Source: a virus (lineage: Duplodnaviria > Heunggongvirae > Uroviricota > Caudoviricetes). Taken from it: 36,473 nt of DNA. The translations under genes were made by a program, and so were the position numbers. Location of the stretch: positions 1-36,473 of IMG/VR virus record IMGVR_UViG_2713896902_000005. One strand, written 5' to 3'. Each line of letters begins with the position of its first letter. Positions within the stretch are counted from its first letter, which is position 1. The notes under the pieces are model-generated. The model was not told where the DNA came from. It made no database searches and saw nothing but the letters and a program-made list of their open reading frames with translations. Positions 11,397-36,473 of the stretch are shown in pieces.

Positions 11397-11597
11397 TCAG
11401 CCCTCTTTACTGGTCGTGGCTTTTTTCTCTTTTGTCGCTTTACTGCTTTTTGCACTGGTTCCGCGCTCTGCTAACCCGGCCTGAAGTGCAATCTCCTGCA
11501 CCCGGGCAGGAAGCGCCCCGTCGTCATACTCACCGGCCCGAATGACCTCAACACGCATACCGTCCGGTGACCATTTCAGATCTTGTTTCAGGATCAT
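11397..11597 (-). CDS. Hypothetical small protein with Lys/Ser-rich tail
   Basis: 66 aa ORF filling the gap downstream of the major capsid gene. Confidence 0.35.
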   Translation of the reverse strand: MILKQDLKWSPDGMRVEVIRAGEYDDGALPARVQEIALQAGLAERGTSAKSSKATKEKKATTSKEG

Positions 11598-11646
11598 GAT
11601 TCTTCACCCGTCAGAACAGGGGGCGCGGTTCCGCGCCCCTGAGTGA

Positions 11647-12852
11647 TTACGCCGCTGCAATCTTCAGCAGTTTGATGGCCTGCGAATCGACCAGCATCCC
11701 GCCGGTGCGCTTGGTGGTATAAAAACCGACAAACGGTTTATTGGTGTACGGGTCACGCAGAATGCGGGTGCCGATACGGTCAACGATGGTGTAACCCCGT
11801 TTGAAGTTACCAAATGCAATGGCTTTCGCATCAGCGGCGATATCCGGCATCTGTTCGTTTTCAGCGATACCGTAACCCGCCAGAGAGGACGGCTGCCCCA
11901 GTTCCAGCCCCGGACGCCACAGATAGTTACCCTCGGTGTCTTTCAGCAGACGGATGGCAAACAGGCTGTTGTTGTTCATCATGAACTTCGCGCCAGTGCG
12001 GTGTGCCTTACGCAGCGTGTAAATCAGTTTGATAATGGCGTCTGCGGTCACCGCGGTCGCTTCGCCGGATACAATATGCTGAAGTTTGCCGAACGCCCGG
12101 ACCTTGTCGGTTTCATCAGTGGATTCATACGCCAGGAACCCTTTCGGCTTCTTGGTGCCATCGCCTGAGGTAAAGGCAATTTCTTCCTGTTCGGCAAATT
12201 CGGTTGCCAGCTCGCTGTTGATCCAGGCCTCCACGTTGAAGAAGGCATCGTCCAGCATTTTCTGGGTAGCCTGCGGGTTGCCGTAGATTTCCCCCATGAG
12301 AGGTTCAATCAGCTCCAGTCTGGAGGTGGCAGTCTGGGATCGCGTATCCGTTTCCCCCACCCATCCGGAAGCCGTACCGCCCAGATTCACCAGTTTTTTG
12401 TAGTCGGAACCGCCAACGGTGATCACCGTGGCTTCCTGACGCATCACCACTTCATCTTTCAGCAGGTTAAGAATGTTGCGATCCAGTGCTTCCGGCACGG
12501 CGTAGCCACCGTCTTCATCGGTACCCACCTGCAATGCCTTACGCTCCAGATCGCGCAGACCGTCTTCACGGCCCTTACGCAGGAAGCCCACAAACGCCTC
12601 TTTATGCTCGGTGGCCAGTTTATTTTGCGCTCCACCTGCCGGACGTTTCAGCTCAAGCAGCTCTTTTTCAAGGTCGCTTTTGAGATTTTCCAGCTCGCTG
12701 AGTTTCCCGTTCAGGGTTTCCACCTGCCCGGCAAGCTTGCCTTTTTCCTGCTCAATCGCATCCACGCGCTTGTCGTTCTTTGCTTTGAAGTCGTCAAACT
12801 TCTGCTGCAGCTCCTGCGCGACCTGTTCGACATCTTTAATATCAACCGCCAT
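11647..12852 (-). CDS. Major capsid protein, HK97 family
   Basis: 401 aa; N-terminal coiled-coil delta-like region (QELQQKFDDFKAKNDKRV...) followed by a capsid-sized domain; downstream of protease and portal. Confidence 0.85.
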   Translation of the reverse strand: MAVDIKDVEQVAQELQQKFDDFKAKNDKRVDAIEQEKGKLAGQVETLNGKLSELENLKSDLEKELLELKRPAGGAQNKLATEHKEAFVGFLRKGREDGLRDLERKALQVGTDEDGGYAVPEALDRNILNLLKDEVVMRQEATVITVGGSDYKKLVNLGGTASGWVGETDTRSQTATSRLELIEPLMGEIYGNPQATQKMLDDAFFNVEAWINSELATEFAEQEEIAFTSGDGTKKPKGFLAYESTDETDKVRAFGKLQHIVSGEATAVTADAIIKLIYTLRKAHRTGAKFMMNNNSLFAIRLLKDTEGNYLWRPGLELGQPSSLAGYGIAENEQMPDIAADAKAIAFGNFKRGYTIVDRIGTRILRDPYTNKPFVGFYTTKRTGGMLVDSQAIKLLKIAAA

Positions 12853-33882: not shown

Positions 33883-34266
33883 TTAGGAGGCTCTCGATTT
33901 AAGCATTTCCGTACACTTAGCAAAGAGCCTCTCAGTTGTTAGAATCGCAACTTCAGACTGTTTAGAAGTGACCGATTGATCAAGTCGATAGTCTGCAACA
34001 ATCCTCTGAGCTTTAAGTTGACTCAGGATAAAACTAATCCCTTTTAGATATCTAGCTTCATATACTTCACTTCCTCTTGAAGCATCGCCCTGCAAATAAT
34101 TGATTAGCCCCTGATGACTGTCTTTCGGCCCGTTTACCATACAAGGCAAGACATGATGGTAAGCGCCATAGTAGGATCTTGCTATAGCATTTCGATAGCC
34201 GATTTCGTCATTACGTTGATGACAGTCTTTTGCAAAACCGAGAAAATCTTGACTATTAACCGGCAT
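33883..34266 (-). CDS. Hypothetical protein, distal gene of int-proximal cassette
   Basis: About 127 aa from ATG 34266 (GGAGG 6 nt upstream; the track start at 34272 is TTG); overlaps the upstream gene stop by 11 nt; AT-rich. Confidence 0.5.
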   Translation of the reverse strand: MPVNSQDFLGFAKDCHQRNDEIGYRNAIARSYYGAYHHVLPCMVNGPKDSHQGLINYLQGDASRGSEVYEARYLKGISFILSQLKAQRIVADYRLDQSVTSKQSEVAILTTERLFAKCTEMLKSRAS

Positions 34267-35071
34267 GTGCAACCCTCCGGGTAATCAGACCTAATTCGGA
34301 GATAGCATTCTGCTCAATATGTGTGTCTTTACATTCAAACCAAACAGCAAAATCTTTACCGACTAAACAATCGTGCTCAGCCATTGAAAAAGCAAGCTCA
34401 ATATTCATATCAGCGATTTGTTCAGCATCAGAAGACTTTGTCATGAATACAATCGCATTCACTTTCTCTTCCGAAATATTATAAAAACGCATTCCCGAAA
34501 GATGAACCTTCTGAGAATCCATGACATTGGCTACATTATTGAAAATAAGTTCATATTCTAAACCAGAAAGATCGGCACGTTGCTTAAAGGATTCGACCTG
34601 GGAAACAACTTCATCAAGATGGTTGTCCATTTTTTCAGGCTCCTTATCTCCGAACAATTTGGAGTATGACTGGAAATACTTCTCCGCCAACGCCATCTTC
34701 CCCATAAAGAGGGAGTTTTCATAAGCTTGAAGATAAATAAACGGGGATATGAAGCTTTCAGCAAGCTTAATGCTTGTTTCAAAGCTTTTCTTCAACGTAC
34801 CGTAATCTGACAAGAAAACAAGAAAATTCTTTGCAACAACCTCATTATGGCATACCTGCAAGGAACGCTCAAAGAAGCCTATCGCCTCATTCACTTGACC
34901 ATGTGCACCATAGACCAACGCTAAAAGATAGTCCTCAGAGACAGGATCTCTAAGTGCTTCAATCTCACGTAACATCCTTCTAAAGCTAAAGTCATCAATC
35001 CTCACTCCATCTTTGAGGTATTTAGTTAGCCGCGCGCTAATAACTGATGCTTTTTTTGCTGGCTGCAACAT
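34256..35071 (-). CDS. Hypothetical protein, proximal gene of int-proximal cassette (helical, possibly repeat-containing)
   Basis: 271 aa ORF with ATG start; AT-rich; no family recognised. Confidence 0.5.
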   Translation of the reverse strand: MLQPAKKASVISARLTKYLKDGVRIDDFSFRRMLREIEALRDPVSEDYLLALVYGAHGQVNEAIGFFERSLQVCHNEVVAKNFLVFLSDYGTLKKSFETSIKLAESFISPFIYLQAYENSLFMGKMALAEKYFQSYSKLFGDKEPEKMDNHLDEVVSQVESFKQRADLSGLEYELIFNNVANVMDSQKVHLSGMRFYNISEEKVNAIVFMTKSSDAEQIADMNIELAFSMAEHDCLVGKDFAVWFECKDTHIEQNAISELGLITRRVAHAG

Positions 35072-35503
35072 TAAAAACCTTATCTTACAAATAGTTGGTA
35101 ATGATGTTGAATTATTTTTTGTTCTTTATGGCTAATAAGATTACATGAAGGGACAACTTCTGGCCACCTTAGAAAACACTCACTTTAGTAACAAGAGTCA
35201 ATAATATTGTTGACAAATCACAAAAAAACAAACTTATCCAAAATAATCTGGTTTATTACAAAGCCTCTGTGTATAAATCTGTGCATAACATCATTTTTAC
35301 ACACATTTTTTATAAAAATATTTTTTAGCAAAAAATGCTATCTATCTCCGAAACTGCAACCACAAACCATTAATTCCAAATGAAACTATTTTAAAATAAA
35401 TAGTAAGACAGTAACAGGACAGAAAAAGTTCCGCAAAAGAGCCGCGTGTAAAATCAACAATATTTGGCTATTTAAATTCAATGAATTACATAACTATGGA
35501 CAC

Positions 35504-35528
35504 GGGTTCAACTCCCGCCAGCCCACCA
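35504..35528 (+). other. tRNA 3'-end-like fragment (putative att core at the prophage-chromosome junction)
   Basis: GGGTTCAACTCCCGCCAGCCCACCA has a T-arm-like GGG-TTCAACT-CCC and ends in ACCA; upstream is AT-rich non-tRNA sequence; a terminator follows. Confidence 0.3.
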
Positions 35529-35562
35529 AACATTGATACACTAACGTTCAGTGAAGTTCACT

Positions 35563-35596
35563 AAGCCCGTACAGCACAAGCTCTGCGGGCTTTTTT
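35563..35596 (+). terminator. Rho-independent terminator
   Basis: AAGCCCG...CGGGCTT stem followed by a 6-T run. Confidence 0.5.
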
Positions 35597-35692
35597 ACGT
35601 CTATTGTCATCCAGTGAGAATTGCTGAGAACCACGACTTATGGCACCCTTTTGGGGCCCCAACGGAAAGGGTCCAAAACTTGAGGGAACCAA

Positions 35693-35795
35693 ATGGCAAA
35701 ACTCGCAAAAAAAACTTACTGATACTGAAATCAAAAATACCAAACCCGGAGATAAGGAAATCAACCTCTTTGACGGAGATGGATTGCGACTATAG
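35693..35795 (+). pseudogene. N-terminal remnant of a P4-type integrase (frameshifted, truncated)
   Basis: ATG GCA AAA CT then a poly-A slip, then LTDTEIKNTKPGDKEINLFDGDGLRL and a stop; matches the conserved arm-binding N-terminus of P4-family integrases. Confidence 0.5.
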
Positions 35796-36325
35796 TCATC
35801 TCACTGAGGTTGTACTTGCTCGCAGCTTCAAAAAATTCTTCTCCCTTTTGCCCTTACATGAGATCACAGATATATCCTGTAATCTTTCCTGACGATATCC
35901 CCTCATAGAGAAGCCCGTTTCTTTTCCCGTACTGCCATATATATTCAATCGGATATGTGTCACGCTGTAATGCTATTATTTCTATATTGTTGCCACTCCC
36001 TGCGGAACCTTACTGCAGAAATTAAACGCATAATGATTATTATTACCACCATCCCCTTGCTCCATAAACTCCCCAAAGATGATTGTTTTGGCTATTTGAT
36101 GGTGTTGGCAAATGATAATTGACAATGTTATAGATGATATCTCCAGCACTCTGATAATTTATGGATTATTCATCTCCTGTTCATGCAAAATTTTAATTTT
36201 TTTTAGCTAATTAAAAATCGCCCATAAATTCTTATGAATCCCAGTAGTGGTAAGTGATGTAACACATCCATTCAAACTTGTGATACATCTCAAAAAATTG
36301 GTTGGCCAAAATCGCTATTTATATA

Positions 36326-36371: not shown

Positions 36372-36473
36372 ATGAAAGAGAATAAAATACAGAAAATCAG
36401 TAACAAACTGATTAATATCGTTGTTTTCGTTGCAGTTGTTGAATACGCCTATTTATTTCTCCATTTCCATTAA
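36372..36473 (+). CDS. Small hydrophobic peptide ORF (33 aa), uncertain
   Basis: ATG at 36372 with AGGAAA upstream; MKENKIQKISNKLINIVVFVAVVEYAYLFLHFH; stop coincides with the window end. Confidence 0.2.
   Translation: MKENKIQKISNKLINIVVFVAVVEYAYLFLHFH

Follow-up and report, generated by a model that had tools for sequence, protein, structure and literature searches.

A temperate phage in the tmRNA gene of Escherichia albertii, in front of the very probable left end of a dead P4-type island

Introduction

Which elements met at the right-hand end of this prophage, in which gene, and in what order? The window analysed here is a 36,473-nt stretch of viral DNA (Caudoviricetes; IMG/VR record IMGVR_UViG_2713896902_000005, positions 1 to 36,473), and close to its end a fragment resembling the 3′ end of a tRNA gene is followed by a terminator and then by the beginning of a broken integrase gene. 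The initial annotation of this interval proposed tandem occupation of a single integration site, in which an older integrative element had once sat at the locus and a lambdoid prophage had entered the regenerated site. There is precedent for traffic of this kind: in Williams' account, “Traffic at the tmRNA gene,” successive elements are said to use the regenerated ssrA gene, each shifting the earlier ones downstream. We conclude with high confidence that the interval is the right junction of a temperate phage in the 3′ end of E. albertii ssrA, the tmRNA gene, and that next to it stands what remains of an older P4-type ssrA island, its now dead left end. The structure is in itself an ordinary consequence of repeated site-specific integration at ssrA, and the reuse of this site is well known. 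The one feature that might repay further work is a single missing T in the displaced gene end.

Results

The right boundary of the prophage is a displaced ssrA end

The fragment aligns with the last 32 nucleotides of ssrA at 31/32 positions, with one substitution and one 1-nt deletion (Table 1); full-length ssrA ends in GGACGCGGGTTCAACTCCCGCCAGCTCCACCA, both in E. coli K-12 and at the unoccupied E. albertii loci described below. The substitution is the A at 35502, which is phage-derived. The deletion removes a T between 35522 and 35523. That T codes for U357, whose G3·U wobble pair is required for tmRNA to be alanylated. ARAGORN detected neither a whole tRNA gene nor a whole tmRNA gene in the window, and the Rfam tmRNA model gave a sub-threshold match at 35480-35528 (14.3 bits, E 0.0035). 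The agreement with the ssrA end is nevertheless not a matter of chance, since other lysogens of the same phage, E. coli lysogens included, are near-identical to the window up to ...CCACCA exactly, and identity with unoccupied host loci (E. albertii L004 and L010) begins at the core, so that the one identity stops and the other starts at the same CCACCA point. Judged by its sequence, the fragment is a displaced piece of the tmRNA gene, neither part of a tRNA gene nor a whole gene. The tRNA-3′-end-like fragment of the initial annotation is thus a real gene end, though of the tmRNA gene and not of a tRNA gene; the comparison with tRNA and tmRNA 3′ ends that it called for returned the 3′ end of ssrA. 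The fragment is the attR of the resident prophage and fixes the right boundary of that prophage to the base.

Table 1. Features at and around the prophage–host junction (positions in the window)
Feature	Position	Strand	Details
Tyrosine integrase of the resident prophage, 390 aa	32697..33869	+	Pfam Arm-DNA-bind_2 and Phage_integrase
Two overlapping cargo genes, 129 aa and 271 aa, between int and attR	33883..35071	-	ORF list
Displaced ssrA 3′ end, attR core of the prophage	35498-35528	+	GGACACGGGTTCAACTCCCGCCAGC-CCACCA
Very probable left end of an older P4-type ssrA island, 264-bp relic (terminator, leader, first 33 integrase codons)	35529..35792	+	264/264 identical to unoccupied locus L004
Intrinsic terminator	35563..35596	+	Hairpin 35563-35592 and T-run 35591-35596
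Integrase pseudogene stub, 33 codons	35693..35795	+	Broken off after 35792; +1 frameshift in the A8 run 35707-35714
Spacer on the far side of the integrase break	35793..36254		Found at every E. albertii locus seen
ykgR, 33-aa small membrane protein, first host gene past the relic	36372..36473	+	Pfam PF28062 YkgR; 89% DNA identity to E. coli ykgR

The other end of the element, with attL and the rebuilt ssrA, lies outside the window. A search for it through the exact tail proteins (baseplate J and a Mu gp48-like protein) led to other prophages or to contigs that end in the tail-fibre region. A related prophage in E. coli AB56 has a full ssrA at its far end, as expected of attL, and by analogy with it we infer that ssrA would be restored at the far end of the window's prophage as well. 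The arm of that related phage at attL (L028:8321-8500) is itself about 90% identical over some 190 bp to the native ssrA–glaH spacer (L018:8835-9030), terminator included; hence the phage attP holds far more host-like sequence than the 25-28-bp core.

Beyond attR lies a P4-type integrase broken off after 33 codons

The 264 bp that follow attR have intact counterparts elsewhere. The Pluralibacter locus L029 has the same arrangement at the same spacing, with smpB and ssrA, a homologous terminator and then a 409-aa integrase that is intact, and the relic matches this locus at 237/265 positions (89% DNA identity); it is about 79% identical to the corresponding stretches of the E. coli AB56 and WP2 loci, which also carry intact 409-aa integrases. 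Directly 3′ of its target gene and behind the element's own terminator, the stub is spaced as are the integrases in K-12, L001, L002, L023 and L029. Its ATG (35693-35695) is 165 bp past the CCA end, and with one A of the 8-A run removed it reads MAKLAKKLTDTEIKNTKPGDKEINLFDGDGLRL, followed by a stop; the TAG that closes this frame (35793-35795) falls in unrelated DNA. Compared with the N-termini of known integrases, these 33 residues show 82% identity to an intact 409-aa protein of E. coli (with Arm-DNA-bind_3, Phage_int_M and Phage_integrase domains) and 61% to K-12 IntA, and the first 31 of them equal the intact Pluralibacter integrase at 31/31 positions. The Pfam profile Arm-DNA-bind_3 matches the stub over its positions 1-25 of 83 (E 0.0026, 18.3 bits against a cut-off of 27). 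Phage_int_M and the catalytic Phage_integrase domain are absent from the stub, homology ends after codon 33, and no integrase-like sequence occurs after 35792 in any frame. The stub is a pseudogene derived from the P4-type (IntA/CP4-57-like) family and not a functional member of it. The frameshifted, truncated P4-family N-terminus that had been described within about 170 bp of the fragment is borne out in every part, by the distance of its ATG, the 33 codons and the extra A.

The break itself, with GATTGCGACTA joined to TAGTCATCTCACT, is identical in 22/22 E. albertii-type loci, drawn from independent NCBI, ENA and Logan assemblies. At two of these, L022 and L024, the homopolymer has seven A's and the 33-codon frame is open, and the truncation is thus older than the frameshift: the primary lesion is a deletion after codon 33, and the additional A is secondary. 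When one genome per species was scanned for exact matches, the truncation junction gave none, and a 23-mer of the stub returned only the intact Pluralibacter locus, the E. albertii representative being missed, perhaps through a SNP or masking. On the far side of the break, the spacer has no match in E. coli genomes or plasmids (blastn, tblastn), no Pfam match and no convincing reading frame.

Two side observations concern the same few base pairs. In L022 and L024 the stub differs from that of the window at 12/264 positions (4.5%), although divergence stays below 1% both in the prophage and in the host DNA further downstream, which suggests later recombination or a separate history of this short segment. 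Separately, at least 43 blocks of public assemblies list as a gene a 51-aa ORF at 35640-35795 that is made of leader and out-of-frame stub; this annotation is an artefact, the ORF being P4-type integrase debris.

The same stub stands at unoccupied E. albertii loci and behind other elements

Over the final 9777 bp, the window and BBVM01000009.1 (L021) are identical (100%). Loci anchored by the exact YkgR protein have smpB and ssrA, then ykgR, ykgM and ykgO about 850 bp later, and then glaH (csiD) and the gab genes, a layout that matches AP014857.1, the genome of E. albertii EC06_170. The host is, on these identities, Escherichia albertii.

At six unoccupied loci (L004, L010, L047, L049, L050 and L056) the order is smpB, ssrA, the identical terminator, the identical stub and ykgR, and at three more (L005, L006 and L007) ssrA likewise runs straight into terminator, leader and broken integrase. 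Since the identical stub follows ssrA where no prophage is present, it predates the prophage, and the prophage entered an intact ssrA in front of it. In E. albertii at least five other element types have also come to lie in front of the stub, which is found behind P2-like prophages (L008, L011), behind a lambdoid prophage carrying DarT-NADAR (L009), behind lambdoid prophages with other arms or cargo (L048/L053, L051, L052, L054) and behind a P4-like satellite with a primase (L055). The relic is common to E. albertii, fixed downstream of ssrA and not peculiar to one strain. As the same stub and the same break point recur at unoccupied loci and behind other element types, it is a species-wide relic and not a sequencing error. 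The comparison across strains that the initial annotation had suggested thus yields both empty loci with the identical stub and further elements in front of it, and the claim that an older integrative element once sat here holds, with intact ssrA-adjacent relatives in other hosts. The site is a busy one in this species, ssrA being the commonest site of Stx2f prophages in E. albertii (PMC10673567).

The satellite in L055 (L055:1-4160) deserves a remark of its own. It carries primase/D5_N, Derepression and DUF5375 genes, it abuts the stub, and its attR is TTCAAACTCCGCCAGCTCCACCA; P4-type elements therefore still use the site next to the relic of an earlier one.

The resident prophage and its cargo

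The 390-aa tyrosine integrase, whose gene lies 1.6 kb inside the element from attR, is the enzyme that put the prophage into ssrA. Its int-xis DNA is 84% identical to that of Citrobacter phage ΦNP, whose 25-bp attP, GGTTCAACTCCCGCCAGCTCCACCA, has been shown experimentally to target ssrA, that of K-12 included (PMC6456863). The exact 390-aa protein adjoins ssrA fragments in many genomes, and the right flanks beside it are of several kinds: the E. albertii stub, the native ssrA–glaH spacer, or intact P4-type integrases of 413, 409 or 408 aa.

The prophage had been called lambdoid, and this stands for the early region, which has an S24 repressor, a CP76 (CII-like) protein, a YdaS-like protein, an O-like initiator, and int with a xis homologue. 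It does not extend to the virion genes: the head is of HK97 type, and the tail genes are contractile, of Mu/SfV type, with sheath, tube and Mu gp45-48/baseplate J genes and no lambda-type non-contractile tail among them. The prophage is lambdoid in its early region only.

The two cargo genes between int and attR belong to the prophage and not to the relic. Their profile matches with Pfam and PADLOC are weak only, to HEPN_IX for the 129-aa product (E 0.0014) and to TPR for the 271-aa product. In related prophages the same slot holds DarT and NADAR, an AAA_15 ATPase with a D12 methylase, or a 259-aa ORF, and it looks like a variable defence or moron slot.

The terminator, the largely missing native spacer and other explanations

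The terminator reported after the fragment is real and strong: the 72-nt stretch that contains it folds at -23.9 kcal/mol (z = -4.5), and 0/200 shuffled sequences fold as well. Where the E. albertii site is empty, no other terminator comes between it and ssrA. A homologous hairpin stands at an equal distance from the CCA in K-12 CP4-57 and in L001, L002, L023 and L029. In many E. coli genomes ssrA is followed by about 540 bp and then by glaH, an order that we take as the native arrangement, and loci of this native type have a different terminator about 190 nt downstream. Since the native arrangement has another terminator, the hairpin in the window belongs to the P4-type element and not to the ancestral chromosome. 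In E. albertii the native spacer is recognisable again only from 145 bp ahead of glaH, and no second ssrA fragment is present; the interior of the old island has therefore been lost, as have its right att site and the greater part of that spacer.

A terminator in this position might be useful, and one could suppose that the stub has been kept by selection, the hairpin ending ssrA transcription at empty loci and perhaps ending prophage read-out in lysogens, with an IsrM-like RNA as the product. In favour of this are the intact and strongly stable hairpin, the identity of most E. albertii loci over all 264 bp, the absence of the native terminator from E. albertii, and the 3′ end of the Salmonella sRNA IsrM, whose last ~55 nt (hairpin and flank) are homologous to positions 35542-35596 of the window; IsrM is encoded immediately 5′ of STM2763, on the same strand. 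However, an obvious use exists for the terminator part alone, and the likeness to IsrM is confined to those last ~55 nt. We consider maintenance by selection rather unlikely; it is in any case compatible with the origin of the stub in a P4-type island and is not an alternative to it.

As an identity for the region, IsrM was tried and rejected. Rfam family RF02763 aligns by its 3′ end to the terminator and the ~20 preceding nt at 37.8 bits, far under the gathering score of 376, and the body of IsrM is unmatched. The 3′ end of IsrM may itself derive from a similar island-borne terminator.

A further possibility is that the ancestor of E. albertii imported an ssrA flank that was already rearranged, with stub, spacer and ykgR-ykgMO, by homologous recombination or another rearrangement. 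Several observations at the locus are in keeping with this. The 5.4 kb between ssrA and glaH are specific to E. albertii; in E. coli ykgR, with ykgM and ykgO, is located elsewhere, and ssrA can abut glaH. No second ssrA fragment occurs between ssrA and glaH in L004, with up to 3 substitutions allowed, and in each of the other E. albertii loci the 18-nt core, searched for exactly, occurs once only. The unusual divergence of the L022/L024 stub relative to its flanks points the same way. Against import of the flank as a separate account, the stub must still come from a P4-type island at an ssrA gene, given that intact islands show the same position and the same distance from the terminator; import would alter the place of decay and not the nature of the structure. 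No remnant of the right end of the old island survives, and decay in place and import of a decayed flank are for that reason not separable. We hold import to be improbable, and our preferred reading is still that the island decayed where its stub now lies.

Besides ykgR-ykgM-ykgO, two further features lie between ssrA and glaH in L004 (L004:9158-14562): at 11581-11656, on the opposite strand, a gene resembling tRNA-Met, and an ORF of 738 aa that no Pfam profile matches.

Two last explanations can be set aside with near certainty. That the integrase is truly intact, its frameshift and stop being sequencing errors in a poly-A run, might be entertained since an 8-A homopolymer is error-prone and two loci have seven A's; yet the seven-A frame still stops after codon 33, where homology to every intact relative ends, no integrase continues downstream, and the junction is the same in all 22 independently assembled loci. 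That stub and terminator are cargo of the resident prophage, or a second decayed phage integrase, could be suggested by their lying only ~30-170 bp from the prophage end and by the fact that phages can carry pseudogenes, but it is refuted by the identical stub at unoccupied loci and behind unrelated elements, by the quite different DNA that flanks the same phage and its exact integrase in other hosts, and by the end of lysogen near-identity exactly at CCACCA.

The T that encodes U357 is missing from attR

The T absent from the fragment is present in functional ssrA (L004 and K-12). Among E. albertii lysogens, attR lacks T in the window and in L021, TC in L019 and TCCA in L051, which holds a different phage; the T is kept in L022, L024 and eight others. 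Inheritance of the loss from the phage attP is disfavoured, as the same phage arm keeps the T in L022/L024, in 7/7 IMG/VR contigs and in at least 44/47 complete E. coli genomes, and attP copies with a related core are intact in 29/30 deposited phage records. The fragment in the window most likely lost its T after integration.

The lesion as such is already known for two P4-type elements, CP4-57 and CP4So. The K-12 CP4-57 attR lacks the same T and reads TTCAGACTCCGCCAGC-CCACCA (L318); excision of CP4-57 deletes T357, inactivates tmRNA and shifts ribosome rescue to ArfA (PMC10107115), and excision of CP4So gives SsrA-ΔU (PMC5148205). A scan of IMG/VR for shortened cores returned 59 contigs, of which 58/59 carry deletions that start directly after CAGC. 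A second sample was anchored on 80 IMG/VR contigs with a CP4-57-type left end, in which 79 adjacent displaced fragments were classed: 56 were intact, 14 lacked T, 1 lacked TC, 2 lacked TCC, 4 lacked TCCA and 2 were of other kinds. Thus 21/79 have a 1-4-nt deletion that begins after CAGC and removes the U357 T, and these stand behind many unrelated phage and satellite arms. Besides the window, displaced fragments with deletions of this kind occur in L019, L051, L057-L115, L236-L279 and L318.

It is conceivable, and we put this forward tentatively, that the missing T is one case of a recurrent, position-locked lesion and not a random mutation. As a hypothesis, a fixed left edge with a variable right edge would fit the scar of an abortive integrase cleavage between the C and the T; selection for lesions that make loss of the element costly may be another source. 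A limited literature search found no description of a T-less attR in a ΦNP-type phage or in E. albertii, nor of the position-locked spectrum.

Discussion

Proposed history of the locus

What the parts are, where the integrase breaks off, that the stub occurs both at empty sites and behind other elements, and that intact relatives exist elsewhere are all matters of observation; the order of events and the decay in place are what we infer from here on. A P4-type island related to CP4-57 would have integrated at the extreme 3′ end of ssrA, bringing its own copy of the gene end, a terminator and, directly downstream, its integrase gene. In an ancestor of E. albertii everything from integrase codon 34 on was presumably lost from the island, its far att site included, along with about 540 bp of the native ssrA–glaH spacer, and the 264-bp stub would have remained fixed downstream of a functional ssrA; the extra A probably joined the A-run later, in most lineages. 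The present phage would then have recombined its 25-28-bp attP core with ssrA by means of its ΦNP-type tyrosine integrase, so that ssrA was rebuilt at attL and the old 3′ end, stub attached, moved about 40 kb downstream to its present position, where the displaced fragment would have lost the U357 T. If the cases of CP4-57 and CP4So are a guide, excision would leave an inactive ssrA (ssrA-ΔU357) when the crossover falls 5′ of the T position; alternatively, the unequal cores may block excision.

For the biology of E. albertii, the more general point is that a fixed island relic supplies the terminator nearest the tmRNA gene of the species, and that many different elements have since used the site. 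For the prophage, the consequences hang on the T-less attR. If it acts as in K-12 and Shewanella, curing or induction of the prophage would inactivate trans-translation in the survivors; if it does not, the prophage is locked in. Either outcome bears on prophage-curing experiments and on predicting which ssrA prophages are mobile, the Stx2f phages of E. albertii included. Moreover, if a position-locked lesion is the true reading, any ssrA prophage, those of ΦNP type included, could become a tmRNA off-switch like CP4-57, or a locked prophage.

Comparison with known systems

Tandem occupation, as originally proposed, describes the locus in part. The prophage did enter ssrA in front of the stub, but the two do not form a formal array. 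By the Islander criteria each member of an array needs its own integrase and its own tDNA fragment, and the downstream member here has 33 integrase codons only and no fragment of its own; the genome from which the window comes holds a prophage and a relic. True tandem arrays are formed in E. coli by the same phage together with live P4-type islands. The tmRNA gene is the most enriched target of island integration, and tandem arrays at such sites have been catalogued (PMC4383910).

The closest parallel in layout is CP4-57, with intA, in E. coli K-12, where the ssrA 3′ end is followed by a terminator about 40 nt past the CCA and by a P4-type integrase about 100 nt beyond, as in the window; the CP4-57 attR fragment is annotated there as the pseudogene psaA. 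In the window, by contrast, the island is cut down to 264 bp with no catalytic domain, the nearest intact relatives of the stub are the 409-aa integrases and not IntA, and the T-less fragment belongs to a ΦNP-type phage, whereas that of CP4-57 belongs to a P4-type element.

For the resident prophage the parallel is ΦNP of Citrobacter rodentium, likewise a myovirus with a lambdoid-style early region. Its 25-bp attP is the window core at 35505-35528, and it lysogenises K-12 at ssrA, that is, beside CP4-57 (PMC6456863). At the megablast level the two match in the int-xis module alone (30% of a 4.5-kb query), the remainder of the window's prophage being a different mosaic.

Lastly, CP4So of Shewanella oneidensis, a P4-like element at ssrA whose attR is also without the wobble T, shares the loss of that T with the window, though it comes from another genus and has an integrase of another type.
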